Positions 12,712 through 52,436 of a stretch of DNA of 64,000 nucleotides are shown piece after piece (positions within the stretch are counted from its first letter, which is position 1; every line of letters starts with the position of its first letter). The position numbers and the translations under genes are program-made. The DNA comes from a plasmid. The notes beneath the pieces were generated by a model that saw nothing but the letters and a program-made list of their open reading frames with translations, ran no database searches and was not told the DNA's origin. The DNA lies in sequence record NZ_CP041047.1; one strand, written 5' to 3'.

Positions 12712-13808
12712 TTTTCCTCCTGGGACGTACCGTTCTGAGCGTCAGCGGTTGAATATCCGGCTTTTGCTTGAATGTACTTGATGAACTCATCAGGGTTTTC
12801 GGTAAATTCTTTAGGCATTTCCTTCAGAATATTGGAATCGATATAACCCGTATCATTGTATGGCAAGGTACTTTTATACTGCTGGTCTGTAATAAGTCCA
12901 GAATCATGAGCGATTAAAATGGTTCTTGAAACAAGCTGGTCAGCTGCAATAGGGCCGAAGGAGACAATTTTAGTTGTTGACGGAGGAATAGCCAAAGCAA
13001 GAGCAGGAACATTAGAAATCTGGAGTTTAGCTGCTTGCCCGGTATCACGTTTCCAGTCAGGCATCATGTTCCCAGGTAATGGTTTCCCATCAATAGAGAT
13101 AGGGATAATTTTAATACCTGTCATGTAATTAAAAGCGGTCATTACAGATGCTTGTTTTGAGCAACTAGAACAATCTTCACCTCGGAAAAAGAAGAAGATC
13201 CCAGCCTTTGTGGCTATATCTTTTACCACTAATGAAGACTTATCTGCGGCAGCATTAGATTGATCCATAGCACCGAATGTAGACGTAGATCTCCGGCTGC
13301 TTTCATCTATAAGCGGGTCGGTAGAAGTAACCAACCTAGCCATATCAGTAAAGCGGCTGGCTTTATCCAGCATAATGCGTTGGGCCAGAAAATACGCTCT
13401 AACGTTTTCTTGAGTAGGATTGTCAATGGCCTGGTTGCGCAGTTTCTGAATGTTTTCATTGAACCAAGCGACGGTGAACGGAGCGGGGCCGGGCTTTTCC
13501 GTTGCGACAGGTTCTGGAGTCGATTCCACAGGTGTTTGAGCAACCTGTTTGGGTGTATCTTGTGGCGGTAAAGTCGGCGGAGGAGGTAGCTTCACTGGTT
13601 TTTTCTTCACTGGCTCAGGTGGCGATTTACGCCAGAACCAACCTTCCTCTTTACCATTCAGAAATGCCTGACCACCAGCGAGGTCGTCACTGGTGGTCTG
13701 AGGGGATTGAGGCGTTATGGTATTACCCTCATCCGCAAGAACAGAGGTAGTAAAAGCAAAACCCACTAGCAGGGGAATAATGCTCTTAGTTAAAAATTGA
13801 TATTTCAT
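12708..13808 (-). CDS. traF: TraF/TrbB-family thioredoxin-fold periplasmic pilus assembly protein
   Basis: Signal peptide, Pro-rich linker, CSSC (CxxC) thioredoxin-like C-terminus. Coupled to traH. Confidence 0.6.
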   Translation of the reverse strand: MKYQFLTKSIIPLLVGFAFTTSVLADEGNTITPQSPQTTSDDLAGGQAFLNGKEEGWFWRKSPPEPVKKKPVKLPPPPTLPPQDTPKQVAQTPVESTPEPVATEKPGPAPFTVAWFNENIQKLRNQAIDNPTQENVRAYFLAQRIMLDKASRFTDMARLVTSTDPLIDESSRRSTSTFGAMDQSNAAADKSSLVVKDIATKAGIFFFFRGEDCSSCSKQASVMTAFNYMTGIKIIPISIDGKPLPGNMMPDWKRDTGQAAKLQISNVPALALAIPPSTTKIVSFGPIAADQLVSRTILIAHDSGLITDQQYKSTLPYNDTGYIDSNILKEMPKEFTENPDEFIKYIQAKAGYSTADAQNGTSQEEK

Positions 13809-14124
13809 CGGAATTACCCTCGGAAATTATTCTTGCGATGGACTCCGTCCAGAAAAAGGTATTTTTTCCACTAAAGACCCTTGCACTTTCAAGCTGGCGA
13901 GTTAATGCATAATGCCGATATCTGACCTGCCCTATACGTTTGGCTACACTATCCGACTTAACGCCAATTTCGGAGCAAGCCTCATCGAGAGTCATGCGTG
14001 TTCCATATTTACGCAACAGCTCATCAGTAACTATGTTCTTAGGGTCGTCGTTAACTAATACCGCAGGGATTTTGTGTGCTGGCATAAGCATTGCCCTGTT
14101 ATGAGAACATTTAAGTGTCTTCAT
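13786..14124 (-). CDS. Hypothetical 112-aa protein at the head of the traF operon, possibly a regulator
   Basis: ORF overlaps the traF start. No recognisable domain. Confidence 0.25.
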   Translation of the reverse strand: MKTLKCSHNRAMLMPAHKIPAVLVNDDPKNIVTDELLRKYGTRMTLDEACSEIGVKSDSVAKRIGQVRYRHYALTRQLESARVFSGKNTFFWTESIARIISEGNSDEISIFN

Positions 14125-14274: not shown

Positions 14275-14309
14275 ATACAAAAAAACCCAGTCCGAAGACT
14301 GGGTTTTTC
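14275..14309. terminator. Strong bidirectional terminator closing the 14.3-21.9 kb operon
   Basis: A-run, cccagtcttcggactggg hairpin, T-run. Confidence 0.65.
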
Positions 14310-14339: not shown

Positions 14340-14861
14340 TTAAAGACCAAAGTTATCTTTGAAATGACGTTGGTTTTTCCAGGATGAATTTTCAATCACA
14401 CAGCATTCAAATACTGTATTCAGGTCGTCATCTGGAAATTTAAGGGCATCGTTGCCTATACGAATGATGTTACCGATAAGTTCACGGGCTAGCTGAGAAT
14501 TACGCAAGAAACGAGTAAAGAACTCATTGCTGATATGTTTGCCCAAGTTATAAGCAAATTCAAGCAACGTTGCATCGTTAGCAGTCAGCACCGCACCAGA
14601 TTCAGATGCGAAATAAAAAACATTCTCTTGGCAGCCGAGGTTTTTCATTGCGCGGAGAAACAACATTTCTCCTTCCATATCCATAAGGCGTAGAATTATA
14701 TCAATATCAGATTCATCGTTTACGACAGCACCGACAGCATCATAAAGTACGGCAGCGGGAGCTTGTTCAAACTCATCACGTTCGTAATTCATCAACATAC
14801 GGTTTTGTGCGTTATTAAAGCTATCAATATGATCTGATTTAGCAGTAGTTGAAGTATACAT
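14340..14861 (-). CDS. Hypothetical protein (173 aa), last gene of the AAA/vWA operon
   Basis: ORF with a GGAG-like RBS. No domain recognised. Confidence 0.35.
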   Translation of the reverse strand: MYTSTTAKSDHIDSFNNAQNRMLMNYERDEFEQAPAAVLYDAVGAVVNDESDIDIILRLMDMEGEMLFLRAMKNLGCQENVFYFASESGAVLTANDATLLEFAYNLGKHISNEFFTRFLRNSQLARELIGNIIRIGNDALKFPDDDLNTVFECCVIENSSWKNQRHFKDNFGL

Positions 14862-14882
14862 GAGTGACTCCTTAGAAATTTT

Positions 14883-15272
14883 CTACCAGACAGTTTGTTC
14901 TTTCATGAAGTCAGCCTCATTCGCTATAAAGCGTTTTGCTTCATTCATCGCCGTATCGAAATGTTTATTACCCAACTTGCGTCCGAGATCAGTTATCTGT
15001 TCAACAAGAAGAGCACATTCAGGGTGAGTAAATCGTCCACCACCTTGGCAGTAAGTTAAACGAGTAACCAGCATTGATGCCTTCGACTCATTTTGTGTTA
15101 CATGAAAGATGGTTTTGTGAGTTCCTATCCCTCGTTCGTTCAGAATATTAATGGTTTCCATATCGGCGAGTAGTAATCTTAAGTCCTGCAAATCTCTTTC
15201 AATCGAATGAGTTTGCAATGACATACCGCCTGAGACAAAACCATAGACATCCCCGGTTTCAGAATAAAACAT
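14883..15272 (-). CDS. Hypothetical protein (129 aa)
   Basis: ORF preceded by the conserved AATGAGGTATAT RBS motif. Confidence 0.35.
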   Translation of the reverse strand: MFYSETGDVYGFVSGGMSLQTHSIERDLQDLRLLLADMETINILNERGIGTHKTIFHVTQNESKASMLVTRLTYCQGGGRFTHPECALLVEQITDLGRKLGNKHFDTAMNEAKRFIANEADFMKEQTVW

Positions 15273-15296
15273 ATATACCTCGATAAATTAAATTAA

Positions 15297-15557
15297 TTAG
15301 AAGATACCCGGCTTACACCGTAATAGAGCATTAAAAATCTGCTCGCGAGCCTCAGAAGGATTTACTTGTTTTGCAATCCCTTCAATCCACTCATCAACCG
15401 GTATTCGGGTAAATTGATGGTCTGTATTGCGAATCCTGATTGCAATGACAGCCCAGTGAGCGAGAGCATACTGAACATAATGCTTATCGCCTGGTGCAAC
15501 CTCACCGCGTATTCTGGCGGTGCGGTTGTTATACTCTATCAACGCGCAGCCACTCAT
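15297..15557 (-). CDS. Hypothetical protein (86 aa)
   Basis: ORF in an operon with short spacers. Confidence 0.3.
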   Translation of the reverse strand: MSGCALIEYNNRTARIRGEVAPGDKHYVQYALAHWAVIAIRIRNTDHQFTRIPVDEWIEGIAKQVNPSEAREQIFNALLRCKPGIF

Positions 15558-15584
15558 ACAGACTCCAGTTATTAATTAATATAG

Positions 15585-16068
15585 TTAAAAGACAATTCCA
15601 TCATCAATCGCCGTCAGGCTTTCAATTTTTGGAATATCGATGAAATTAAATCGCCGAACATTTTTCGCCGTAATAATCCGACCGTCATTAAGCTGAAGGG
15701 TCTCACTTTCTTTATCAGAACGTGATGGCCAGGCAGCGATAACTGAGTCTTCAGTGATTACATAATGCCGACTATTTGATGTAAACAAAATGCATGGGAT
15801 ATCCATGAAATGAGACTCCAGACATTCAGTCTTTAAAATATTACCATTCTGTAGTGCCAATCCATACATCATTAATATATGCATTGGCCCCAAACTCAAC
15901 CCCGCGTGGCTGTATTTTATCCAGAATCTCGAACGTCCATCCTTCTTCAGGAGGCCATTGAAAAAGCAATGGTGCTCCATCCAAATATTTTATGGCAAGG
16001 ACGCTATGACGAAGAGGATCGAGGATGCTAGTCTCACCGGGTATTGCTTTAACCCAATAATGAATCAC
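15585..16068 (-). CDS. Hypothetical gene present as two overlapping frames (15585-15980 and 15841-16068). Possible frameshift or two small genes.
   Basis: Two ORFs overlap by 140 nt on the same strand in different frames. Confidence 0.2.
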
Positions 16069-16078
16069 GATGTCACCT

Positions 16079-16582
16079 TTATTGATTTACAAGAGGAATA
16101 AATTGAGTTTGGGTCGTTATATCAGACATGAGTTCATATATCTTGTAGGGCCACCACTTTTTATCCATATCACGTAAGAAATGAACCTCAGTGATATCGG
16201 GACACATTGGATGCCACAGGCTAATAACCATGAGCTCAGATGCCTCAACCTCAATGAACTGATTGATTGAAGTAACCCTGAACTCATTCGTGGCAATAAA
16301 CCCTATTAGATCCTCCAACTGATTAAGCAAAAAACCCGCTTGTCGCTGTTCAGAGGAACTGTCGAAATCATGCTTTAAAATATTCATGTTAGTCTCCAGC
16401 GCGGAACGAAAAAAACGCTGACCGAAGTCAGCGTTTATATTTTTACAGAGGCTTATCCCTAATCGGCTTTGCAGCCTCTTTAGGATAAGTGTGATAAAAC
16501 GCTTTTCTGTACTTTTCGTATCCAATACGTTGGGATGCAACATGTTCCATATTAGTGGGAGCAGTAAAGTGATGACGCGCAA
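16079..16582 (-). CDS. Hypothetical protein. The true start is probably internal, at about 16383 (MNILKHDF...).
   Basis: The listed ORF overlaps the upstream gene by 140 nt. An internal Met gives a tight junction. Confidence 0.3.
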   Translation of the reverse strand: MRVITLLLPLIWNMLHPNVLDTKSTEKRFITLILKRLQSRLGISLCKNINADFGQRFFRSALETNMNILKHDFDSSSEQRQAGFLLNQLEDLIGFIATNEFRVTSINQFIEVEASELMVISLWHPMCPDITEVHFLRDMDKKWWPYKIYELMSDITTQTQFIPLVNQ

Positions 16583-16952
16583 TCAGACTTGCTTGCTTAG
16601 CCAATTCACCAGACCACTCGTGCAGGATTTCCATTCGGGTTTCGAATGGGTCAAGACCTGCTATTTTGCAGCAACTCGTAAATGAACAAAGGTCTTCCTG
16701 ATTTTCTTCCGAACAAATCCAGAGGATTTCATCCACACGCTGCTCGCCAGTACTACGGTATGCAGTCATGATATATATGCTATCCCGAATTATCTCGTAA
16801 GCCATCTTTGATGAAAAACGAAGTTCATAATTATGTTCTGAATCGGCTGATATCAGATCATATTCACTTTCAGTGGCATCGAAAATACTCATGAATGAGA
16901 GTTGATTTTCGTGAACCACTTTAAATTTTGCGGTTGCAGACATAATGATCAC
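16443..16952 (-). CDS. Hypothetical protein (169 aa)
   Basis: ORF preceded by a taaatt...AGGTGATC-type spacer. Confidence 0.35.
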   Translation of the reverse strand: MIIMSATAKFKVVHENQLSFMSIFDATESEYDLISADSEHNYELRFSSKMAYEIIRDSIYIMTAYRSTGEQRVDEILWICSEENQEDLCSFTSCCKIAGLDPFETRMEILHEWSGELAKQASLIARHHFTAPTNMEHVASQRIGYEKYRKAFYHTYPKEAAKPIRDKPL

Positions 16953-17006
16953 CTTTAAAATAAATTAAATTAATTTAGAAAGTTAAAACAGAGATTAAAA
17001 TACAGA

Positions 17007-18920
17007 TTAAGACAGGAGAGCTTTACGGGTTACTTCAAAGAGTTTGTTACGTAAGGCAGAAACAGAACCGACAGAAATACCGGTATCACCAAAAAGACTT
17101 TTCATCATGCTGTCATTGGCATCACCGAAACCGATACCAATAACGATGATGTCATCATCTTTAGCGCTTTGTATCATCGCTCGCGCAGAAGCCATATCAT
17201 CAGGCTGGCCATCAGTTGCAATAACCAATACATGGCGATCCGCTTTAGCTGACGTCAGGTCTGCAAGTGCAGGCCATAACGATTCGCAAAGAGGAGTACA
17301 ACCTTGCGTACCAATTCCAAACTGATGAGTTCCAATAGCTGTCCGTAGAGTTTGCTCCCGTCCTTTTAACAGACCTACGCTATTATGCGCGGCGTGTGGG
17401 AAATGATATGCCGAGGTAGTTACCCCCTGAATACCATCGAGCGCATACAACATTGATACAACAGCGGCTTCAGCCTCTTTAACCGACCGGCTCATTGACC
17501 CGCTAGAGTCCAGCAGGATAGTAAAAGCAGAACTGACATCTACTGCCTTGGACTTATGTTTAAAAAGACGCGTATTTCCCAGCATGGCACTGGTAACCAG
17601 TCGAGAATCAAGCTTACGACCAGTTTCACGATGTGTTCTTCTCACCGCTCTTACACCCTGCAACAACCCATGAAGTGATTGACGTAACCCGGTAGCCATC
17701 TGCACCCCTAAACTTACGGATGCATTACCGGTATCGTGCCGCTTCGCAGGTGCTACTGAATATGGAGTAGGTGAAACGATACGTTGATGCGGGGGTACTT
17801 TGTCTTTGATTAGCTGATTGAGCTTATCTGAAGTGTTCTGTCCTGTACGGCCAAGATCATTCGATGTGGTTCCCTCGAAAGGGTCTTTTCCGTTCTGGGA
17901 CAGGTTACCGACAGAAGATTCACCCTGAGCATTTACGCCCGGATGGGAAGCAGCGGCGTTGCTGTCACTCGAGTTGGAAGCAGGAGCATTACGATTAGCT
18001 GATGTTGACGAAGAATTTTCGTTTTCATCATCGGTATCGTTTTGCCCATGTTCTTTATCTGGTGCGCCACCGGCATTACCATCAGGTTCTGAAGAAGGCT
18101 CATTCTGACCGGCTGGCGATGACGATGAACCGTCATTACCGCCTGCACTATCATTCTGGCCATCCCCATTTTTGTCAGAACTGTCGGATGACTGGGCCGG
18201 GTCTGACGAACTGTCATCACCTTTGCTGTCATCAGAATCAGCACCCTGATTATCATCCTGCGGAGGTTCTTCCTGCTCATTAGTTTCGTTAAATGCATCT
18301 ACTGCGAGGTCATATAACCGACATGCAACTTCAAACACCTTTTTAATCGAGGTTGCTTGTACTGCTTCAGCCATAACCATCATAGCTTTGTCATACAGCT
18401 CCAGCCCGAAGATACGTTCAAAGTCCTCACGCGCTTGCTTTGTTGGAATAGTTAAACCGTTGAAGCGGTTCAAACCACAAGTAAGCAGGGTATCCAAAAA
18501 CACCGAAGAAGCTTTATCACAGGATTCCGCTTCCTCACTGAACAAAAAATGATTCAGTGAATTGAGATACTTTAATGTACCTGGATAGCGACAACTCATC
18601 GCACGTTCAATGCGCAAATCTTCGCAAAGGTTGACCAGATGTTTAAGTACCTCAACGTTGTATTTATCCGACTTCATATGCTCTTGCATGAATATCTTGA
18701 GATCACCAAAATCAGTGAAACGGATATGTGCTGCTTCATGTACGGCATACCCTAACAAAGGATTTGCCAACATTTCAGCGTCTTTGAAGAATGGAATGTT
18801 AATAAGAAAACCAGCTCCAGTCTCCGTAGCATATGCTTCATTGCCGCCGACAGAAACATTAAGGCCAATCTGAGAGCTTAATGCACGTGCGACAATAGGA
18901 AGGGAATTATAAATACCCAT
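17007..18920 (-). CDS. CobT-like von Willebrand factor A (vWA) domain protein with a central Asp/Ser-rich disordered region
   Basis: C-terminal vWA with MIDAS DSSGS. Paired with a CobS/MoxR-like AAA gene two genes upstream. Confidence 0.65.
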   Translation of the reverse strand: MGIYNSLPIVARALSSQIGLNVSVGGNEAYATETGAGFLINIPFFKDAEMLANPLLGYAVHEAAHIRFTDFGDLKIFMQEHMKSDKYNVEVLKHLVNLCEDLRIERAMSCRYPGTLKYLNSLNHFLFSEEAESCDKASSVFLDTLLTCGLNRFNGLTIPTKQAREDFERIFGLELYDKAMMVMAEAVQATSIKKVFEVACRLYDLAVDAFNETNEQEEPPQDDNQGADSDDSKGDDSSSDPAQSSDSSDKNGDGQNDSAGGNDGSSSSPAGQNEPSSEPDGNAGGAPDKEHGQNDTDDENENSSSTSANRNAPASNSSDSNAAASHPGVNAQGESSVGNLSQNGKDPFEGTTSNDLGRTGQNTSDKLNQLIKDKVPPHQRIVSPTPYSVAPAKRHDTGNASVSLGVQMATGLRQSLHGLLQGVRAVRRTHRETGRKLDSRLVTSAMLGNTRLFKHKSKAVDVSSAFTILLDSSGSMSRSVKEAEAAVVSMLYALDGIQGVTTSAYHFPHAAHNSVGLLKGREQTLRTAIGTHQFGIGTQGCTPLCESLWPALADLTSAKADRHVLVIATDGQPDDMASARAMIQSAKDDDIIVIGIGFGDANDSMMKSLFGDTGISVGSVSALRNKLFEVTRKALLS

Positions 18921-18961
18921 ATATACCTCACAATAAATTTAAATAGATTAATTAGAAAAAA

Positions 18962-18976
18962 GGCCCAGAGTGGGCC
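18962..18976. terminator. Intra-operon hairpin (ggcccagagtgggcc) flanked by A/T runs, between the 455-aa gene and the vWA gene
   Basis: Read directly. Could be an attenuator or a processing site. Confidence 0.4.
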
Positions 18977-18984
18977 TTTTATTT

Positions 18985-20352
18985 TTAAAACACCATTATT
19001 GTTCCGTCATCATCGTGTGAAGACGAAGTTTCAATTTCCGGCTCTTTTCCATCAATGACTTTTTCAGAATCCAAACCCGAAATAAGAGCAGGGTCTGGCA
19101 GAGAACGGGGTGCAACAGAATCACCGTCCAAAAATGAATCATCATCGACCATAACCGCATCAAACGCAGGAATTACAGCATCATTAACAATTACATGCTC
19201 CTGGGTATCGGACAAGTCGTTAACGTCAGTATCAGCCGACGTATTAACCAGTTCGATTGCCAAAGGCGTATCAGCAGAACCATTGACCTCTACCAGTACA
19301 GATGGGGCTTCAGCGAGTGAATCAACGTTTTGCAATCCGACCGGATCTTCCACTACCACAGCAGATGCAAATGCATCTGTATGCAGAGGAGGTATCGTTT
19401 CCGCCTGAACCTGAGTTGCCGACATGGCCGCTAAAGTAATGGCATCATCATCTTCAATAAGGTTCATTGAAAGTGATGGGTCAATTGCATCGTTACCATC
19501 TGTAGTACTGGCGGATGACAGCAGTTCCACAAACTGTTTTGCATGAATTGGGTCGCGTAAGTTATTGAGGAGAGAGAGAATGTCGTTATAAGGTTTGCCC
19601 GTCACTTTACCGGTTAGCGGAATGTCTTTCATTACCTGATTAACATAGTCGCTAAGAGACTGGACGCTGGGTGCGATGAAAGCCAGGGACGCGAGTTTAT
19701 CGCCGCAGCGGCGTAAAGGATTTAGTGTGTGCTGAGAAAACGCATCAGGGTTCCTGTTTTTAAGGAATCCTTCCACAACATCAGCCACATCCTCATAAAC
19801 TTCATCCGCTAAACTTTTAACTTGCCCAGTTAAACCATCCTGAATGACACTGTTGCCATAAGGAGTGATGTGAATCGCAGTAAAGCCAAATTGTATCTGG
19901 CTATCCATATAAGACAAATCGATAGCAGCATCACGCAAAAGTATAGAGCGATACTTTTCTTCAAAAGAGTTAATCCAGCTATTAAAATCAGCTTTCATAA
20001 ATTCCTTTTTGTAATCGTAAAACTCGCCCTTAAGTACATTCAGTTTACCAATTAAATCATTAACCTTGTCGGCTGGAATTGCATAGCCGCCCATAAATTT
20101 AATACCCGCTTCGAGACAAAAAGCGTGAGCTGAATTCTTTTTGCGGGTAAATGGATTGATGAGTTGTGGGTCAATGATTTTCTTGCTGCCTAATGAAACG
20201 AGCACATCAGGTGGCAAATCAGCACTGTTACCAAGATCTTCTCTTTTCAGCTTACGACGACCACTAATACTGGTGATATCAGAAAGAGAAACGAGAATAA
20301 GTTGTTCCAGAACCTGAGTGGCATTGGATTTGATAGTCATGACATACCTCAT
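18985..20352 (-). CDS. Hypothetical protein. Structured N-terminal domain of about 300 aa plus a long acidic disordered tail. Likely true start is 20340 (MTIKSN...).
   Basis: The listed N-terminus MRYVMT is an RBS-motif artefact. Acidic D/E/S-rich C-terminus. Confidence 0.4.
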   Translation of the reverse strand: MRYVMTIKSNATQVLEQLILVSLSDITSISGRRKLKREDLGNSADLPPDVLVSLGSKKIIDPQLINPFTRKKNSAHAFCLEAGIKFMGGYAIPADKVNDLIGKLNVLKGEFYDYKKEFMKADFNSWINSFEEKYRSILLRDAAIDLSYMDSQIQFGFTAIHITPYGNSVIQDGLTGQVKSLADEVYEDVADVVEGFLKNRNPDAFSQHTLNPLRRCGDKLASLAFIAPSVQSLSDYVNQVMKDIPLTGKVTGKPYNDILSLLNNLRDPIHAKQFVELLSSASTTDGNDAIDPSLSMNLIEDDDAITLAAMSATQVQAETIPPLHTDAFASAVVVEDPVGLQNVDSLAEAPSVLVEVNGSADTPLAIELVNTSADTDVNDLSDTQEHVIVNDAVIPAFDAVMVDDDSFLDGDSVAPRSLPDPALISGLDSEKVIDGKEPEIETSSSHDDDGTIMVF

Positions 20353-20385
20353 TAATTTAAAATTGATTTAAAAAGAATTAAAAAA

Positions 20386-20397
20386 CCCCAAGCGGGG
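20386..20397. terminator. Intra-operon hairpin ccccaagcgggg with a T-run on the minus strand, downstream of the AAA gene
   Basis: Read directly. Confidence 0.4.
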
Positions 20398-20399
20398 CT

Positions 20400-21491
20400 T
20401 TATTTAAGTGCTTCAGAACCGAATACAGCTTCAACGATGAGATGCAAAGATTTTTTATCATCTGCTGATGCACGATTACCAATCTGATAATCGAAAGCTG
20501 TTAATAATGCACGTGGCATCTTTGCAGCTTTCATCATTGAGTAGCGGTCAAGCCAGGCCACCAGCGAACGAGTTGAACACGTTACTGATAAACGAGTGTC
20601 GGGAAGAACACCGTCCGGGAGTTTTGCACTGTTAGTATTGACACTAGTGTCAATTTCACCGGTGATATTCTTGCCTACAAAAAGACCGCGAATCATATTC
20701 GCAACGTCAACAAATTTCTCCGCGACTTTGGTGTCGGGGATATATTTGGTAATCAATTTAGTCTCGGTCTCTTTTGGCATATAGTCAGCAGTGATAAACA
20801 TATAGCGGTCAAGGTTGGCCACATTTAATGTTTTCACACCGCCATAAACGCCAGTAAAATCGCCCTGACCAATCGAGTTAGCCGTTGCAACAAATCTGAA
20901 GTTCGGGTGCTGTTTAATTACCTCGTTGGTTTCAGGAATAACTAAATTCCCTCCTTCGAGGATGGCGTTAAAGGCATTGGCACAGGATGGGTCTAATTGA
21001 TCGTACTCATCGAGTAGGAAAATCAGTCCATACTTGTACGCCAGCGTCAGTGGGCCATGAACAAAAACAGTCTTGGTATCACCGGTCAGTTCATTACACT
21101 GAAGCCGGAGACCGCCAATGAGATTGTTAATATCCAGGTCTTGTGAAGCTGTAGTTTTCATGACAGGCCAGTTAAGTCTTGCTGCTACTTGTTCGACAAC
21201 ACTGGTTTTGCCACAACCTGTTGGGCCAGAGATCCACAGAGACTGATTTTGTGGATAGTTAATCCACATCAGTACAGATGAACGCAAATACGCTTCAAAA
21301 ACATAGTCGTCATTCTGTTTAGGCACGAATGCACTAAATGGATTGGCTGAGTCAAATCCCTGGAACGGTTTCACTTTATCCATCTGATGTTCTGGTACAA
21401 CAATACCAAATACAGAAGGGTGGACAGGTGTAGAGCGCGCCATGATTTCAACAGACAGGTTTGCGAAATTAGTAGTCATGATATACCTCAT
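20400..21491 (-). CDS. CobS/MoxR-family AAA+ ATPase. Likely true start is 21479.
   Basis: Walker A GPTGCGKT. Walker B FLLDEYD. Size and layout as in CobS, GvpN and NorQ-like ATPases. Confidence 0.7.
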   Translation of the reverse strand: MRYIMTTNFANLSVEIMARSTPVHPSVFGIVVPEHQMDKVKPFQGFDSANPFSAFVPKQNDDYVFEAYLRSSVLMWINYPQNQSLWISGPTGCGKTSVVEQVAARLNWPVMKTTASQDLDINNLIGGLRLQCNELTGDTKTVFVHGPLTLAYKYGLIFLLDEYDQLDPSCANAFNAILEGGNLVIPETNEVIKQHPNFRFVATANSIGQGDFTGVYGGVKTLNVANLDRYMFITADYMPKETETKLITKYIPDTKVAEKFVDVANMIRGLFVGKNITGEIDTSVNTNSAKLPDGVLPDTRLSVTCSTRSLVAWLDRYSMMKAAKMPRALLTAFDYQIGNRASADDKKSLHLIVEAVFGSEALK

Positions 21492-21536
21492 TAAATTAGA
21501 TAGATTTAAGAATTAAAAAAATTAAGAAGAATGATG

Positions 21537-21929
21537 CTATGCAGCAATATCAGCACGTACTAAATCAACATGCTTATAATTGCGGCTTACACTGCCACTG
21601 TTATCAACACTGGTTACCTTTGGGGCATACGTTACATAAGAGACGATGCCACGGGCACTCAATGCAGAGACCAGAACGGGCATAAAAAAGGTTTTGGCAT
21701 AAACAAGTACGCCGTCAGCCTTATATTTATTGCAGAGAGATGTAGCGATTTCAGCGAATTCTTTAGCCTTATCGGTCATAACATCTTCTGAAGGACAGGT
21801 ATTAAAGGTCAACAGTTCACGTAATGCGTGTGATACTTGCTGATCAACATCAATAACGCCCATTTCCCGTTGTTCCGGGGATGCAAGATATGCAGTCATA
21901 TTTACAAGAAACATGATCAGACTCCTCAT
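21537..21929 (-). CDS. Hypothetical protein (about 120 aa), first gene of the AAA/vWA operon
   Basis: ORF downstream of a 330-bp leader that carries the conserved box. Confidence 0.3.
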   Translation of the reverse strand: MRSLIMFLVNMTAYLASPEQREMGVIDVDQQVSHALRELLTFNTCPSEDVMTDKAKEFAEIATSLCNKYKADGVLVYAKTFFMPVLVSALSARGIVSYVTYAPKVTSVDNSGSVSRNYKHVDLVRADIAA

Positions 21930-22039
21930 TTAAAAAGATTAGTGAATTAGATGAATTAAGCCTTACATGAAGGCTGAAGTTAGGTACTAGTTTCAGTTTG
22001 GGAGTGACTGAGGCACTTGTTGTTGTCTACGTGACAACG

Positions 22040-22057
22040 AAACACCTTTTTCGACGG
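22040..22057. promoter_or_regulatory. Conserved 18-nt box AAACACCTTTTTCGACGG, copy 1, about 110-130 nt upstream of the AAA/vWA operon and flanked by hairpins. Candidate activator-binding site.
   Basis: An identical 18-mer is also at 25977-25994. Both have an adjacent small hairpin. Confidence 0.35.
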
Positions 22058-22250
22058 ACAAAAAAGCCTGCCGCTTATGTGAGCCGCAGGCTATCGAATT
22101 TGTTTAGGCGAGAAAAATCCTTGTGAATACCAGGAGGTATTCAGGAGTGGCTTGAGCGCCGAATTTAGAAGGTGTTTAAAGGCAGTTGCCTGAAGTTAAG
22201 CGGACTAAGCCGCTATTTAAAGATAATAAAGGATGTGTAATTGGTCAAGC

Positions 22251-22279
22251 AAAAAAAAAGCCCAGTTTTAAACTGGGCT
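22251..22279. terminator. Rho-independent terminator after exo (minus strand)
   Basis: gcccagttttaaactgggc hairpin plus a 9-nt T-run on the minus strand. Confidence 0.65.
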
Positions 22280-22285
22280 CAATAA

Positions 22286-23404
22286 TTAAAAAACAACGAA
22301 TTGTTGGGCTGAGTCTGTCTCTTCTGCACCAGGTGATACCAGTACGGAATTGTCATCCAAAGGAATGTAGACAGTATCAGTCAGAGTTGATTTATATTCA
22401 TAGGTACTTAGTGAATTTCGTACCGATGACTGACCGTAACATTCTGGATGATGTTTCGGGTCAATAGATAATTTATCGCAGATTCGTTTGTAGCTCGGTT
22501 TTTCCGGTACGCGAGACTGAAGAAAACGAAAGCCAAAGCCATCGATTCTAACAAGCTCGTTATAGGAAAAGCCAACAGAAACACCAAGACCCTGGATCAA
22601 TAAATTGACCGAGTTCTGGTATTCTTCGAACTGCTTTTTCTTTAAAGCTAACTCTTTCTCCATCTGCTGCAATGTTCCAACTTGTCTGGCTATGTCTACC
22701 ACACGAGCTTCCAGGTCGTCTGGAAGCTTAAAGCCTTGTGTATGAGACATGATTACAGGATCAGAGATAAGTAAAATATCTTTTTCCTTATCAAACGGCA
22801 TAGCTGTTTTTGTCTGTACCCTATTCCAGAAATATTCGCAGGCAACCTGGACGCGATAAAACGCTTTCTCCGAAGGCATAATTTTAAAGACCTTGGTCTG
22901 GTCAGTTGCTGACCAGAACACAAGATATGCCTGGGGTGCGCCTGTTGTCAGCAACTGGTGCTGAACTTGCCAGTAGTAATAACGAAATTCTGGCGATTTG
23001 GTTTCAAGCTGAAGAATAGAAAGATGTTTGCTCTCGCAAAGATTCTTTATCTCAAGGATTGAACCATCGTCAAATTGACCATCCAGTGAAGCAATCATGT
23101 AAGGATACTTTTTGTTCCTTACACAGAAAGGCAGGGCGATTTGTCCTATCTCTTTTTCGCAGTAACTTCTGGCAAGTGCTTCAAGCTTTTTACCAGCATC
23201 AACCTGTTTAATGACAGAAAGGTCTTCTGCCTGAATCAGGCCAGCGTATTGCAAATAGAGTTCGTAGGGCGTTTTAGTTGCACCTGGCTCCTCTAACAGA
23301 ATTGGGGAGCATGTTGCAGTCACACCGGTTTTACGCCATTCGAGCCAGTCCTTTGAACCCTGCACAACATCAACGACTTCATAAATGTCAGACATAATGA
23401 TCAC
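22286..23404 (-). CDS. exo: YqaJ/lambda-Exo-like alkaline exonuclease (phage-type recombination exonuclease)
   Basis: N-terminal QGSKDWLEWRKTGVTATC YqaJ motif. Downstream of the RecT-like gene. Confidence 0.65.
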   Translation of the reverse strand: MIIMSDIYEVVDVVQGSKDWLEWRKTGVTATCSPILLEEPGATKTPYELYLQYAGLIQAEDLSVIKQVDAGKKLEALARSYCEKEIGQIALPFCVRNKKYPYMIASLDGQFDDGSILEIKNLCESKHLSILQLETKSPEFRYYYWQVQHQLLTTGAPQAYLVFWSATDQTKVFKIMPSEKAFYRVQVACEYFWNRVQTKTAMPFDKEKDILLISDPVIMSHTQGFKLPDDLEARVVDIARQVGTLQQMEKELALKKKQFEEYQNSVNLLIQGLGVSVGFSYNELVRIDGFGFRFLQSRVPEKPSYKRICDKLSIDPKHHPECYGQSSVRNSLSTYEYKSTLTDTVYIPLDDNSVLVSPGAEETDSAQQFVVF

Positions 23405-23452
23405 CTTAAGATAAATTTAGAAAGTTAGACCGGCAGTTTCCTGCCGGATAAG

Positions 23453-25009
23453 TTAAGCGGCCTGAAGATCTTCAATAAGACCTTCTACCATTTCTTTTAG
23501 AGGGGGGAATGTCACATTGCTGAGAGCGGCATGAAGCCTGGTAAAATCAGAGGTATTAACAGCCTCAAGATATAACTGGTGTATTTCCACTGATTCGGCC
23601 TGGACTTCACCAACCCATTTGGCCGCGTCGGTTTTAAACTCACCCTTACCCATTTTTTCGATGAAGTTAAGGACTTGAGTAAAATCGAAGCTACCTACTG
23701 CGTTAATTAAATGATTTTTGAGAAGTGCCCTTCGGGATTTTTCTAAAGATAAGCGAGCGAACGCCAGCTCACTTTCATTCAGATCGAAACTGCTTTTTGC
23801 ATCGGTTAAAATAGTTTCGTATCCAAGCGTTTTTTCTGCCCGGCTTACTAACTTTTTAATTCTGCGTTCAACCCATTTTCTAACCCCGGGATGTTCAGAC
23901 ATTTCTTCATTGGACTGCCCATTGGTTTCTGCGGGTGGGGGGAGAATATCATCAGCCGCACCGTTTACTTCGGCTGGAGGAGTATTTCCCTCAGCCGTAT
24001 CGTTAACATCGGTTGGTGTATTGCTCTTGATGTCCTGCTGCTCGGCTGAATTAGGTTCTTCAGCGAGCTTATTGAACTCGCCTTCAATAACTTTACCATC
24101 AGCCTTTTCAGTTTGGATAGTGGTATCCGTATTACCAGCCGTCCTGGCTTCTTGTCTAATCTCCATTTCAGCTTCAGCAGCTGCGACGGGTATTGTTGCT
24201 GTACGGAAACCTTCACCACCAGCAGTGTTCAGATATTCAATCATCGAACTCAGGCGAGTACGGTTACCGGGAATTAAGTGTATGGTCTGCTTAATAGCAG
24301 ACTTGAGCACCATCTTCCACGGGAACTGAGTCCACGGAGAATACTGCCGTTTCTCCACTTTTGCCCAAGATTCGGATTTCGCCCGAGATTGAGCTAAATC
24401 CTGAAGGTCAATGAAAAATACCAGATGACGTCCATCCTTCATTAAATAGTCGACATAAGCCCCCCTGAACATGCCCCGATCTCCTAAATCACCCTGATCG
24501 GTGTTTGTGAGAACGAGTCCCCCTTTATAAGCAAAGGGGTCAAATTCGTGGTCTGGGCTGGAGCGACGACCATTGGTTTTAAATGAGTCCTTATCAAAAA
24601 CTAATTCAGCCACAATGTCTTCGCATAAACCTTCATCGGTGGCCATCCTGCTGAGCCCAATATAGGACACGTCGAGAATGACACGACCATCGCGTGGAAC
24701 CAGGTAAGCCTGCTTCTGCGCCGGGTCAAGAGTGAGGCCGCTACTTGCGAGCTGAAGGAATGCAGTTTCGAAGGACTTTGGATTATTAACTGCTATGTCA
24801 GCCAGGAAGTTATTATTGTTGACAATATGTTTTGCAAATACGCATTCACGTTCGAATGAGATATGCGGAGCACTGGAACCTGCGGATGCGAACATCTTAT
24901 CCAGCGACAACATATGTCGTGCAATACTGTCCATCTTTACGACAATATCGGAGTTGCCTTTATTGTTGTTAGAAGAGGAACCTGAGCTACGTGATTTATT
25001 TGAGTACAT
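23453..25009 (-). CDS. bet: RecT/Bet-family single-strand annealing protein with a roughly 230-aa disordered C-terminal extension
   Basis: Position in the ssb-recT-exo triad. N-terminal half of RecT size. C-terminus Pro/Glu/Asn-rich. Confidence 0.5.
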   Translation of the reverse strand: MYSNKSRSSGSSSNNNKGNSDIVVKMDSIARHMLSLDKMFASAGSSAPHISFERECVFAKHIVNNNNFLADIAVNNPKSFETAFLQLASSGLTLDPAQKQAYLVPRDGRVILDVSYIGLSRMATDEGLCEDIVAELVFDKDSFKTNGRRSSPDHEFDPFAYKGGLVLTNTDQGDLGDRGMFRGAYVDYLMKDGRHLVFFIDLQDLAQSRAKSESWAKVEKRQYSPWTQFPWKMVLKSAIKQTIHLIPGNRTRLSSMIEYLNTAGGEGFRTATIPVAAAEAEMEIRQEARTAGNTDTTIQTEKADGKVIEGEFNKLAEEPNSAEQQDIKSNTPTDVNDTAEGNTPPAEVNGAADDILPPPAETNGQSNEEMSEHPGVRKWVERRIKKLVSRAEKTLGYETILTDAKSSFDLNESELAFARLSLEKSRRALLKNHLINAVGSFDFTQVLNFIEKMGKGEFKTDAAKWVGEVQAESVEIHQLYLEAVNTSDFTRLHAALSNVTFPPLKEMVEGLIEDLQAA

Positions 25010-25083
25010 ATATACCTCATTAAATTAAATATATTAAAAAATTAAAAAGAAGAAGGTTGCTGATAAATCAGCAACCAGTCATA

Positions 25084-25848
25084 TCAACCGCGAACTGATG
25101 AATATGCGTTGGTTAATGTTTCCGGCCCGGTAGAGCTTAATTGTTCATTAAGTTTCATACGGGCTGCAATAACGGCTGCTGTCGAATTATCGGCTGGCAG
25201 AGTTGTCCAGGCTTGCATGTTGACTGGGCGCTTAGAGGTAGCCACTTGCGGACGTGATGTCTGCACGGCTCTATTCTTAGCGTCCAACTTCTGCGAAGTG
25301 TCTGGCTTCTTCTTTTCTGACTGTTTATTGTTGTCTGGTAATACAGACTCATTTCCAGGGTGAAGCTGTTTTTGCTCGGCATAGACTGTTCTCCATTTTT
25401 CAGAAGCAGTTCTTACCTCTTCATCAGACATTTTCTGCCACTTCATATCGTCCTTTAGTTTTTGCGCTACTTCAGGGGATAACGTAGTGACGGTTGATGT
25501 CGATGTTGCCTTTACAGTTTCATTTGCACGGGTATCAATTGATTGGCCAGTCTGAATGATTCGAGCCATGAAAACATGAAACTCAGTCCTCATTTGGTCA
25601 ATACCATTTTTTGTATAACGGAATGATCGAGCTAATGCCTCGATATACAGTTCGGTATTCATTTGAATATTGTCACGTAGAAAATCCGCGACTTTACCAA
25701 ATGCTTTTATCGAATAGAACTCGGTCTGGGACTTGCCGCTGATGGACATGTCACAGCGTAAACGAAAATAAATATACGAATCTGAATTATCAGATGCGGG
25801 CATATACTTAGGTTCTATCGCAACAATACCCTTTGCTCTGGATTGCAT
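25084..25848 (-). CDS. ssb: SSB-like single-stranded DNA-binding protein (N-terminal OB fold, long tail)
   Basis: First gene of the triad. N-terminal region of about 110 aa with an OB-like pattern. Assignment rests mainly on context. Confidence 0.4.
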   Translation of the reverse strand: MQSRAKGIVAIEPKYMPASDNSDSYIYFRLRCDMSISGKSQTEFYSIKAFGKVADFLRDNIQMNTELYIEALARSFRYTKNGIDQMRTEFHVFMARIIQTGQSIDTRANETVKATSTSTVTTLSPEVAQKLKDDMKWQKMSDEEVRTASEKWRTVYAEQKQLHPGNESVLPDNNKQSEKKKPDTSQKLDAKNRAVQTSRPQVATSKRPVNMQAWTTLPADNSTAAVIAARMKLNEQLSSTGPETLTNAYSSVRG

Positions 25849-25976
25849 AGTTTATACCTCATAAATTTTTAAATTAAGAAAGTTAGAATAATTTAGTGCT
25901 ATAGGCACAAGAATTAGAAAGATTGATGAAGCATCCAGTTAGAGTGCTGGACTCACTGTATCCTCAACAAGAGGAA

Positions 25977-25994
25977 AAACACCTTTTTCGACGG
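25977..25994. promoter_or_regulatory. Conserved box AAACACCTTTTTCGACGG, copy 2, about 130-145 nt upstream of ssb
   Basis: Identical to 22040-22057. Preceded by the hairpin cctcaacaagagg. Confidence 0.35.
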
Positions 25995-26215
25995 CGCAGA
26001 AAACACGATGCATGATGCACCGTGTGTCGAATTCTATGGGCGTAGGGAAGCCGTGCGAATGAACATATTCATTCAGGGATGGCGCGTTGCCGAAATAAAG
26101 AGTGTTAAAAGAAGTTAAGCGGTATGTCCGCGATATAAGATTATGATACGACGTTGGGTTGGTCAATCCAGAAAAGAAAAAAACCCAGCTTTCGCTGGGT
26201 TTTTGTTGGGAGGTA

Positions 26216-50930: not shown

Positions 50931-50962
50931 AGAGCCCTGAATTAAACCAGGGCTCTTTTTTC
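50931..50962. terminator. Bidirectional terminator
   Basis: agagccctg...cagggctct hairpin followed by a T-run. Confidence 0.55.
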
Positions 50963-52436
50963 AAATTATCACCACTGAAACATTTCGTTCAATACGACTT
51001 CGGTATTCCTCTAATAGCTCCATTAACGAAGTATTGATGTTTACTGATTTCTTCGTTCTGGTGATGGTTACGTACAGCAGATTTAACTCATCAATTATTA
51101 CTTCCCGGGGCTTCTTCATCACAACTGCTTCTATAATGGATGGAAAGTCGTCATTGATAATGACATGGTCAAATTCCTTTCCCTTCGATGTGTGGGCCGT
51201 GGTAACGAGTAGGTCAGCTTCCTTTTCTGATTTGGCTTCATTCATCCTCATGGTCTCAACCATTCCGGGGATATCGTCATACACTTCCATTAGCTTAATC
51301 GCCCGCACCATGTCCACGTCCTTAGTGGTTTCTGCGATCTCATAAAAATTTGCCCAGTTACCGTATTCCGTAGCGATACGGTTATTTTTAATAGCGGCAA
51401 TGTTGCCTGTTTTCAGCGCGTGTAAATCAAGGAGCTCATCGAGACGGTATTTGGATATACCTCCGTTCCACATCACCCGCTTACCCCACATAATCGCCTC
51501 GTAGGCAGATTGTATGACTCCCATGTAGGTACGGCTGATGATGGCGTAAAACTTTTGATCCAGTATCGCTGATGGTTCAACGATAGCATCAAGACTACCC
51601 AGGCCTACCAGGGGGAAAGTTTCTCCCTTCATCGACAGCACAACGTTGGCCAGGGCAGCAACTAGAGGCCCAAACCGGAAGGATTTAGTCAGGCGCATAA
51701 CCTGAGCCCCGTGGCCCTCAACTACCTCAAGAGCGTTTTCTGCGCCGCGCCACCGGTTAATCACCTGGTGCTGGTCGCCGACAAAGACTTTGCAGCAGTT
51801 GTTTCTCAGAACGATATCGATCGTTACCGGATTTGCATCCTGCGATTCGTCGAAGAGAATAACATTGTAGAACTGGTCAAGGGCTGGGTTCGATAACTGG
51901 AACAACTTGAGGATGGTATTCGGTGAGCAATAGGCATCGTTGAGCGGGTCAGATTGCATTTGCCATGTACGTTTTGCTGCACGTAGCGCTTGATCCAGCT
52001 TGCTTTGAGATATTTTATCGGCCTTACTTAAATCTTTAAGTACGTGTTCGGCGGTAATATCGTGTTCATCTGAATTCATAAAATGGGTAAGCCCGTTTAT
52101 TGCAAGCTTAACCACTCTCCAGTCCTCTTCATCCATCATAGTACGGTATTCGCTCACGGATATAAATTGTCTGTATTTATGAGCAAAGTGCTTGTAGCGA
52201 GCTGCGGCTAAACCATGAGATGTTTTACACTCGACGTTTTTGGGAAATTTCTTTTTTGCATCGTCCTTAATCGCTTTATTAAAGACGATATAGAGTATTT
52301 TGAGTGAAGGGTTTGCGTCTGCGAATTCTTTTAGTGTAAAGGTCTTACCAGATCCCGCGTATGCCTGTACTGAAACAATACTGCCAGGCGTGGGTTTGAA
52401 GCCTATGATCACGTTCTGTTCATCAGTTACCGGCAT
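50961..52436 (-). CDS. Superfamily-1 (UvrD/Rep-like) DNA helicase
   Basis: Motif I AYAGSGKT. Motif II DESQD. Motif VI VTTAHTSKGKEFDHV. Confidence 0.6.
   Translation of the reverse strand: MPVTDEQNVIIGFKPTPGSIVSVQAYAGSGKTFTLKEFADANPSLKILYIVFNKAIKDDAKKKFPKNVECKTSHGLAAARYKHFAHKYRQFISVSEYRTMMDEEDWRVVKLAINGLTHFMNSDEHDITAEHVLKDLSKADKISQSKLDQALRAAKRTWQMQSDPLNDAYCSPNTILKLFQLSNPALDQFYNVILFDESQDANPVTIDIVLRNNCCKVFVGDQHQVINRWRGAENALEVVEGHGAQVMRLTKSFRFGPLVAALANVVLSMKGETFPLVGLGSLDAIVEPSAILDQKFYAIISRTYMGVIQSAYEAIMWGKRVMWNGGISKYRLDELLDLHALKTGNIAAIKNNRIATEYGNWANFYEIAETTKDVDMVRAIKLMEVYDDIPGMVETMRMNEAKSEKEADLLVTTAHTSKGKEFDHVIINDDFPSIIEAVVMKKPREVIIDELNLLYVTITRTKKSVNINTSLMELLEEYRSRIERNVSVVII

Follow-up and report, generated by a model that had tools for sequence, protein, structure and literature searches.

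A CobS/CobT-type motor and adaptor pair with a linked DUF3150 protein in the transfer backbone of an IncT-like MOBH plasmid

The 64,000-nt stretch of the plasmid record NZ_CP041047.1 analyzed here (the window, to whose positions all operon coordinates refer) contains an eleven-gene operon embedded among conjugation genes, and the core of this operon encodes a CobS-like AAA+ ATPase, a CobT-like adaptor and a protein of the DUF3150 family. The reading that we favor, with a probability of about 0.4, is that these three products form a motor-adaptor-client machine which is not a chelatase and which would serve the assembly, remodeling or recycling of single-stranded DNA-binding protein (SSB), annealase and exonuclease on plasmid DNA. 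The region is the IncT/Rts1-like MOBH plasmid version of an accessory operon conserved in MOBH/MPF-F conjugative elements, among them SXT/R391, IncC, IncT and IncP-7. New in the present work are the adjacency of the DUF3150 and adaptor genes, the observation that the trio travels with genes for SSB, annealase and exonuclease, a C-terminal tip that co-varies among several of the products, and a pair of paralogous leaders. The three core genes are the following.

20400-21491, minus strand: CobS-like (MoxR-class) AAA+ ATPase, 363 amino acids (aa), the proposed motor (AAA_5 and phrog_249 profiles)
18985-20352, minus strand: DUF3150 protein, 455 aa, the proposed client (PF11348, 1e-59)
17007-18920, minus strand: CobT-family adaptor, 637 aa (zincin-like N domain, acidic disordered linker, two shaft helices and a von Willebrand factor A (vWA) domain with a MIDAS (metal ion-dependent adhesion site))

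Motor and adaptor

The ATPase matches the Pfam family AAA_5 (5e-20) and the phage CobS family phrog_249 (4e-53), and its Walker A (GPTGCGKT) and Walker B (IFLLDE) motifs are both intact. Upon comparison with the PDB, the solved CobS is matched at 2.4e-33 and the best sequence match is provided by the AAA modules of midasin (8e-40). On TIGR01650, the NCBIfam CobS equivalog, the score is 108 bits against a cut-off of 558.55. The protein is clearly a homolog of CobS and not a CobS ortholog.

The vWA domain of the adaptor is recognized by Pfam (VWA, 3.5e-9) and carries a MIDAS composed of D471-x-S473-x-S475, T542 and D570, in which D471, S473, S475 and D570 are invariant and T542 nearly so. On sequence grounds, the pairing of an AAA_5 protein having intact Walker A and B motifs with a neighboring vWA protein having a complete MIDAS places the operon among the MoxR-class AAA+/vWA systems, the formation of a complex by the two products being putative. 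The N domain of the adaptor contains the elements H61-E62-x-x-H65 and E100-D-x-R-I-E105, of which H61, E62, H65, E100 and E105 are invariant in alignments of 15 and of 28 sequences. In the AlphaFold2 (AF2) model the HExxH motif lies in helix 48-68 and the downstream Glu in helix 89-111, an arrangement of HExxH and downstream Glu that characterizes gluzincin-type zincins and suggests a putative zinc site. The same domain also matches a PHROG family annotated as peptidase (4e-8).

The relationship to CobT was evaluated with family profiles. A profile of 28 adaptor sequences matches the solved CobT at 3.3e-33, collinearly, starting in the N domain and extending through the linker as far as the vWA domain's end (81-591/103-614), and CobT is again the top match (0.0031) of a profile restricted to the N domain. 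Full-length homologs of the adaptor, at 25-28% identity, carry the Pfam domains CobT (PF06213) and CobT_C (PF11775); the window adaptor taken alone matches neither Pfam CobT nor any NCBIfam CobT model. By these comparisons the vWA protein is a true member of the CobT family, at the superfamily level only, and the CobS/CobT assignment made in an earlier note on this DNA, itself drawn from the sequence, is borne out for both proteins. The AF2 model of the adaptor opens with one helix, a three-strand sheet and eight helices; a disordered linker comes next, and then two long helices and the vWA domain. This topology agrees with the published description of CobT as CobT_N (M48C-peptidase-like), linker, shaft and CobT_C (bioRxiv 10.64898/2026.07.21.739949). 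The best fold matches obtained for the vWA domain with Foldseek were NorD (1.8e-10) and the MIDAS domain of midasin (MDN1), from a library that returned no CobT entry. The linker corresponds to a segment of about 125-130 aa rich in Ser, Asp, Asn and Gly (approximately residues 217-345) with a net charge of -22, and residues 220-342 are modeled with a predicted local distance difference test (pLDDT) value below 50; a disordered Asp/Ser-rich insert had been described before, but at 150 aa its length was overestimated.

A further observation concerns the C-terminus of the adaptor. Among 54 distinct CobT-like C-termini, 21 end in Ala-Ala (...LLAA, ...TAFAA), as compared with 42 of 1045 background open reading frames (ORFs) in the surveyed loci (L002-L087). 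Such ends recall the ssrA-type degrons of ClpXP; the window adaptor (...ALLS) is without one.

DUF3150 protein and C-terminal tips

The third core protein scores 202.4 bits on PF11348, well above the Pfam gathering threshold of 24.9. Its AF2 model consists of a folded N domain (about residues 10-285, pLDDT >90) and a disordered region (293-449). Over the last 165 residues, which terminate in the tip DDDGTIMVF, the net charge is -33, in keeping with the acidic tail already noticed in this 455-aa protein. Structure searches with the N domain gave no informative match, and neither a metal site nor a family link could be recognized by Pfam and fold searches.

Of the 124 members of the DUF3150 family, 114 terminate in F or W, typically preceded by acidic residues and another aromatic, as in DDDGDYFF or EDEDAFF. 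The occurrence of such ends was counted over distinct 14-residue tails in the surveyed loci, F/W being scored except for SSB, Bet and background, where F/W/Y was scored.

DUF3150 tails ending in F/W: 46/46
Exonuclease tails ending in F/W: 30/36
WGR-like/hyp302 protein tails ending in F/W: 8/8
SSB tails ending in F/W/Y: 14/26
Bet tails ending in F/W/Y: 7/20
ATPase tails ending in F/W: 0/37
Adaptor tails ending in F/W: 0/54
Background ORF tails ending in F/W/Y: 7.4%

The tips are alike within one locus and shift together between lineages (AWF/SWF/AWF; FYF/YYF/FYF; VVF/MVF in the window, where the exonuclease ends ...QQFVVF; TLF/FLF in Rts1). From exo to the last operon gene, 6 of 12 products end in F or W, compared with 2 of 27 for the neighboring genes (p=0.0056). 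The tip also reaches beyond the core module: a 91-aa IncC protein encoded several genes downstream of the adaptor (L002, 16076-16351) ends ...EELEDFYF.

This co-variation points to the tips being ligands of one shared receptor, for which the adaptor is the favored candidate. It is favored because the tip persists in loci where no annealase or exonuclease gene is found nearby, and because the metal of a MIDAS can be ligated by a C-terminal carboxylate, as in C3b-factor B. A further reason is offered by the solved CobSTN complex, in which CobN sits between the two CobT domains and its C-terminal helices adjoin the CobT MIDAS (bioRxiv 10.64898/2026.07.21.739949).

Occurrence in conjugative elements

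One genome per species was scanned with the adaptor alone, and 80 loci were kept in addition to 5 reference loci. Profile scans of genome contigs built on a broad alignment, which offered no conserved stretch, failed, and a narrower alignment was used. The 80 loci are mostly from Gammaproteobacteria and many of them are SXT/R391-type integrative and conjugative elements (ICEs). ATPase, DUF3150 protein and adaptor are all present in 71 of the 85 loci, and in 79 of the 81 loci for which upstream sequence is available the DUF3150 gene is the same-strand neighbor immediately upstream of the adaptor gene. In most loci with sufficient flanking sequence, the trio is preceded by SSB, annealase and YqaJ exonuclease. 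The trio and the SSB-Bet/RecT-Exo genes run in one direction, and four different gene orders were encountered. The IncT-like clade has RecT as its annealase and the other loci have Bet, the trio being kept where RecT replaces Bet.

The synteny SSB-annealase-exonuclease-AAA-DUF3150-vWA next to traF-H-G was found in Rts1, IncC plasmids and SXT/R391-type ICEs, so that the comparison with SXT/R391 and IncC proposed in the earlier note did recover the same module. The units of pCAR1, Rts1, SXT/R391 and IncC have the same genes in the same backbone position, with differences in detail. Rts1 orf226-238 displays full synteny, including the 125-aa, the 166-aa and several of the small genes, except that IS2 divides its adaptor gene. 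The ATPase gene of IncC is found upstream of ssb, accompanied by a WGR-like gene; Bet serves in SXT and IncC where the window uses RecT; and the window clade has no WGR-like gene and carries aliphatic instead of aromatic tips. A Pseudomonas MOBH plasmid typed IncP (L003) has the trio only, with no SSB-annealase-exonuclease nearby.

The WGR-like gene is a fourth gene which, in most lineages outside IncT, overlaps the stop codon of the ATPase gene and encodes 302 aa in IncC (L002, 5124-6032) and 256 aa in SXT (L037, 7594-8364). The WGR-like character of its N terminus is faint (Pfam E=0.045, below cut-off) and is to be taken as a lead only; the tips are aromatic (NYYF, DHFF).

A phage origin was considered and rejected: a tblastn search of 50,697 phage records with DUF3150 returned a single record, in reality a plasmid-like entry from Salmonella, and IMG/VR yielded two loci. 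The trio is essentially a feature of conjugative elements.

Structured leader RNA

The operon and the upstream ssb-recT-exo unit are each preceded by a copy of the same promoter and leader.

22220-22248, minus strand: sigma-70-like promoter identified by sequence, TTGACC-17 nt-TATCTT, with a leader of about 300-330 nt beyond it
22036-22251, minus strand: conserved structured leader, copy 1, before the gene for the 125/130-aa protein (nhmmer 8.7e-61; RNA fold z -5.19)
25974-26171, minus strand: paralogous promoter and leader, copy 2, before ssb (RNA fold z -5.13)

Both window leaders contain the exact 18-mer CCGTCGAAAAAGGTGTTT, for which zero occurrences are expected by chance. Two copies at the same two positions are also present in Rts1 (L005, 9587-9826 and 4922-5148) and in Morganella (L009, 6732-6911 and 2759-2978). 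In the six homologous leaders the -35 box TTGACC is invariant, the 17-nt spacer is variable and the -10 box reads TAnTnT. Folded as RNA, the leaders are of unusual stability. The consensus shows compensatory changes at 12 of 45 pairs across the 6 copies, G-U pairs favor the sense strand, and a terminator-like internal hairpin is followed by a U run. No match was obtained in Rfam at E<=1, and blastn located the leader only in IncT-like plasmids (119 records, unannotated). The leader cassettes tie both operons together in regulation, and the leader itself may be an attenuator or the source of a leader-derived small RNA. In Rts1, an annotated 121-aa 'hypothetical protein' (L005, 4862-5227) overlies the second copy of the leader and probably does not represent a gene.

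A single-stranded DNA promoter of the Frpo type (F plasmid) was considered because the leader of about 330 bp is repeated before ssb. It is not favored: the structure is made of local hairpins closed by a short helix, the G-U bias is that of the sense strand, the -35 and -10 boxes are unpaired, and the module is located on the tra side of oriT in Rts1.

Earlier genetic data

The operon had been presented in the earlier note as uncharacterized. It is already catalogued, corresponding to ORF100-109 of pCAR1, orf226-238 of Rts1, s067-s073 of SXT and the IncC module, and it has been deleted in both SXT and Rts1. The conservation of pCAR1 ORF100-103, among which ORF101 is the MoxR ATPase and ORF103 the VWA protein, in R478, Rts1, SXT and R391 was described in 2009 (Miyakoshi et al. 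2009). According to the same study, ORF100-109 forms a single 7.8-kb transcription unit, is the most strongly transcribed backbone operon of pCAR1 and is transcribed at a far higher level in the transconjugant than in the original host. In SXT, SetCD activates the promoter of a large operon starting upstream of ssb. In the searchable literature, no later functional work on the operon was found, in line with the earlier note.

Deletion of s067, s068 and s070 of SXT, which have IncA/C orthologs, lowered transfer by at most 10-fold (Wozniak et al. 2009), and any transfer role under laboratory conditions is therefore small. In the Rts1 deletion study, the relative efficiencies were 1.03 for orf225, 1.11 for orf226, 0.21 for orf227-234 and 0.81 for orf235-238, as compared with 0.013 for recT, 0.014 for exo and <0.0001 for the true mating-pair formation (Mpf) genes, the recipients being recA-. 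The adaptor gene of Rts1 is itself split by IS2 (L005, 13030-16192, equivalent to Rts1 169029-172191), leaving an N fragment of 223 aa and a vWA fragment of 399 aa; since wild-type Rts1 may already lack the machine, the value of 0.21 says little. Taken together, the SXT and Rts1 deletions argue against the pilus or mating accessory role that had been one of three candidates, and come near to the clean deletion without phenotype which the earlier note had named as refuting its proposal. The operon is auxiliary to mating itself and a mating-pair role is largely excluded. Support of establishment or recombination is the most plausible of the three candidates, the third having been anti-defense.

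Proposed mechanism and alternatives

In the machine that we favor, a ring of the CobS-like AAA+ protein would supply ATP-driven force and the CobT-like protein would act as adaptor, while DUF3150 would replace CobN as client or effector and would be engaged via its acidic disordered tail and C-terminal aromatic tip. Other proteins with this tip, namely the YqaJ exonuclease, several of the small operon proteins and, elsewhere, the WGR-like protein, would be ligands of a single common receptor, and the machine would thereby serve to assemble, remodel or recycle SSB, annealase and exonuclease on plasmid DNA during or after transfer. A more detailed version, in which the CobS/CobT-derived pair has been repurposed to remodel recombination or establishment proteins, the acidic-aromatic tip docks on the MIDAS or in the zincin-like groove of the adaptor, and the IncT-like leader RNA switches the system on together with ssb-recT-exo, is doubtful as a whole.

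Among the closest models is CobS-CobT-CobN (PDB 9uka and related entries), with which the operon shares the AAA+ and adaptor homology, the adaptor architecture and the proximity of these genes to that of a third component. CobN and a cobalamin context were not found in the window, in which no ORF of >=300 aa is CobN-like, and it is DUF3150 that holds the third position across the 85 loci. The HExxH motif is invariant in the plasmid adaptor family, whereas the alignment to the solved CobT starts only after the HExxH helix. A true chelatase was rejected in view of the missing CobN and of an ATPase far below the CobS equivalog cut-off. NorQ-NorD, CbbQ-CbbO, RavA-ViaA and midasin follow the same logic of a MoxR-class motor with a MIDAS-vWA adaptor, and NorB, Rubisco and ribosome assembly factors are known clients of such systems; these systems differ from the operon in that their adaptors have no zincin-like N domain and there is no DUF3150 partner. 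Concerning the tail, in SSB and gp2.5 of phage T7 an acidic disordered linker connects a folded domain with an aromatic-ended docking peptide. DUF3150 has the same layout, with a tip devoid of Pro at -2 and an N domain that is not an OB fold, and its docking is putative.

Several points weigh against the favored machine. Four loci (L003, L015, L046 and L049) contain the trio without recombination genes within 5-10 kb, and the linkage to ssb-recT-exo could, as judged from gene order, represent shared backbone inheritance instead of shared function. The co-variation of the tips rests on few independent lineages, the aliphatic class being a single clade, and binding of the aromatic C-termini to a host factor or to the annealase could equally be envisaged. 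The small effect of the SXT deletions points in the same direction.

Other functions can be assigned to the same genes. The module might be a host-manipulation or anti-defense protease, in which an active zincin N domain powered by the ATPase cleaves or disables a host protein, such as a defense or repair factor of the new host, and DUF3150 is a decoy or targeting subunit. The invariance of HE[AS][AS]H and ED.RIE, maintained in distant members, would not readily be expected if the domain were purely structural, and the PHROG peptidase match, the orphan DNA methylases and primase found near related loci, and the strong transcription of pCAR1 ORF100-109 in the transconjugant are all compatible with this proposal. 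We nevertheless regard it as rather unlikely. The equivalent domain in the solved CobT is a docking surface and not a protease, and the module lies on the tra side of the Rts1 oriT and not in the psiA-containing, leading-like region beyond mobI. The sole anti-CRISPR resemblance, between the N..ED..IE helix of the adaptor (profile residues ~74-121) and AcrIIA26 (PDB 9zq6_B), is not significant (E=0.21). PADLOC applied to the operon proteins reported only short matches to the P-loop of the ATPase (IetA 2.8e-5, 46 residues) and nothing for the other nine proteins, and a defense system was rejected on the basis of this search.

Mimicry of the SSB C-terminus by the tips, with docking on a host hub or the element's own annealase independently of the motor and adaptor, is unlikely for different reasons; the motor and adaptor would in that case act on some other, unrelated client. 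The succession of folded domain, acidic disordered linker and terminal Phe does resemble SSB, several SSBs of the loci end in DDDIPF or EPDF, and the C-terminal domain of lambda Red-beta binds both lambda Exo and the SSB tail. The tips of the module, however, are of the form [DES]-x-aromatic-aromatic-F or aliphatic-aliphatic-F, without the Pro that SSB tips typically have at -2, the DUF3150 tip is kept in the four loci without annealase or exonuclease nearby, and DUF3150 is tied to the adaptor gene nearly everywhere (79/81 loci). Insertion of a metal into a client by the ATPase and adaptor, the client being either DUF3150 or the metal-dependent exonuclease, is suggested by the metal-insertion activity of all the closest solved relatives (CobS/CobT, NorQ/NorD), CobST, NorQD and CoxDE being the precedents; the CobSTN preprint draws the same parallel (bioRxiv 10.64898/2026.07.21.739949). 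Such a metallochaperone appears improbable, given that the window contains neither CobN nor another known metalloenzyme client, that DUF3150 has no recognizable metal site or family link, and that the ATPase and the adaptor fall short of the NCBIfam CobS and CobT models, respectively. Lastly, a pilus or mating-pair accessory is highly improbable. The operon does stand between blocks of tra genes, and the gene that follows it (13786-14124) has a homolog in Rts1, orf239, a gene essential to mating-pair formation. Against this stand the deletion results in SXT and in Rts1, the latter being 1.11, 0.21 and 0.81 as compared with <0.0001 for true Mpf genes, the occurrence of the trio away from tra genes, and the absence of any match between an operon protein and a family of secreted or membrane proteins in Pfam and NCBIfam, no scan for signal peptides or membrane segments having been made.

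Operon layout and neighboring genes

An 8.3-kb stretch covering the operon is 100% identical in large plasmids of Citrobacter, Klebsiella and E. coli, and 80 plasmid records match it over its full length at 96-100% identity. The best record, pRHBSTW-00370_2 (100% identical), is of MOBH type, carries mobI(A/C), an AcaB-family regulator and F-type tra genes, and has 11 annotated coding sequences from 21914 down to 14340. The large ORFs of the window include TraN, TraG, TraH, TraF, TraU, TraC, TraB, TraD and a MOBH TraI, and the gene order agrees almost gene for gene with that of the IncT plasmid Rts1.

The operon consists of 11 co-directional minus-strand genes extending from 21929/21914 to 14340. 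It is flanked by the genes for YqaJ exonuclease, RecT and SSB on one side and by a 112-aa gene, TraF, TraH, TraG and TraN on the other, with a gap of 356-371 bp between the exo stop (22286) and the first ORF. The organization outlined in the earlier note, namely eleven ORFs on one strand preceded by a leader, closed by a strong terminator and placed between ssb-recT-exo and traF-traH-traG, is confirmed in all these respects. The upstream module and the terminators or terminator-like hairpins are located as follows.

22286-25848, minus strand: linked upstream module, with YqaJ-type exonuclease (22286-23404), RecT (23453-25009) and SSB (25084-25848)
22258-22280, minus strand: intrinsic terminator closing the ssb-recT-exo unit, 10-bp stem and T run, directly upstream of the operon promoter
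20382-20401, minus strand: terminator-like hairpin 3' of the ATPase gene
18958-18980, minus strand: terminator-like hairpin between the DUF3150 and CobT-like genes
16413-16436, minus strand: terminator-like hairpin 3' of the 166-aa gene
14280-14309, minus strand: strong intrinsic terminator at the operon end, 13-bp stem and T run

Pfam matches in the upstream module are 5e-19 for YqaJ, 2e-20 for RecT and 3.6e-5 for SSB. The SSB is atypical: it is 254 aa long, scores 24.2 bits, under the Pfam SSB cut-off of 26, and ends ...YSSVRG without the canonical acidic ...IPF tip, which is likewise missing from the Rts1 SSB.

The eight genes outside the trio are listed below.

21537-21929, minus strand: first gene, 125/130-aa protein, also preceding the ATPase in Rts1 (orf226) and in the Pseudomonas MOBH plasmid (L003)
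16443-16952, minus strand: 166/169-aa protein, 3' of the adaptor in the IncT-like clade, 49% identity to Rts1 orf234 and 60% to a Morganella homolog
16079-16387, minus strand: 102-aa gene, annotated, homolog in Morganella (L009)
15841-16068, minus strand: 75-aa gene, annotated, without homolog in L009
15585-15806, minus strand: 73-aa gene, annotated, homologs in L009 and Rts1, protein ending DDGIVF
15297-15557, minus strand: 86-aa gene, annotated, homolog in L009
14883-15272, minus strand: 129-aa gene, annotated, homologs in L009 and Rts1
14340-14861, minus strand: 173-aa gene, annotated, homolog in L009

The 125/130-aa protein is 41% identical to Rts1 orf226 and 28% identical to its counterpart in L003 (7502-7861). 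Seven of the eight genes have homologs in the same order in Morganella, four of them also in Rts1, and these seven are considered real genes for that reason. The sole match of the remaining one, the 75-aa gene, is weak and lies in an unrelated plasmid locus (L058). A 131-aa ORF is better called as the 73-aa gene because the homologs are 75-76 aa long. The last six genes (14340-16387) are small and specific to the clade, and four of the six proteins end in F or W. No match to Pfam, NCBIfam or PADLOC was obtained for the eight ORFs, and the only PHROG match is to a family of unknown function.

The 112-aa gene (13786-14124, minus strand) located just downstream of the operon terminator overlaps the start of traF; its product shares 47% identity with Rts1 orf239, which is without known family. 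Beyond the relaxase gene are genes for a UvrD-like helicase and for a restriction endonuclease of Mrr type that carries a Top1 zinc ribbon (50961-52436 and 56463-57557, minus strand), a pair that may provide a plasmid-borne defense or exclusion function.

Conclusion

The genes of this operon have remained 'hypothetical' for more than 20 years because their deletion barely affects laboratory mating, and the best-known negative result, that of Rts1, came from a plasmid whose adaptor gene was already broken. The core consists of a true motor and adaptor of CobS/CobT type together with a third, obligate partner, which shares a tail of putative docking type with the exonuclease. Should the machine proposed here support establishment or repair that depends on RecT/Exo in new hosts, it would have implications for host range and for the survival of incoming plasmids, and would clearly exemplify the recruitment of a motor of the chelatase type to DNA metabolism.

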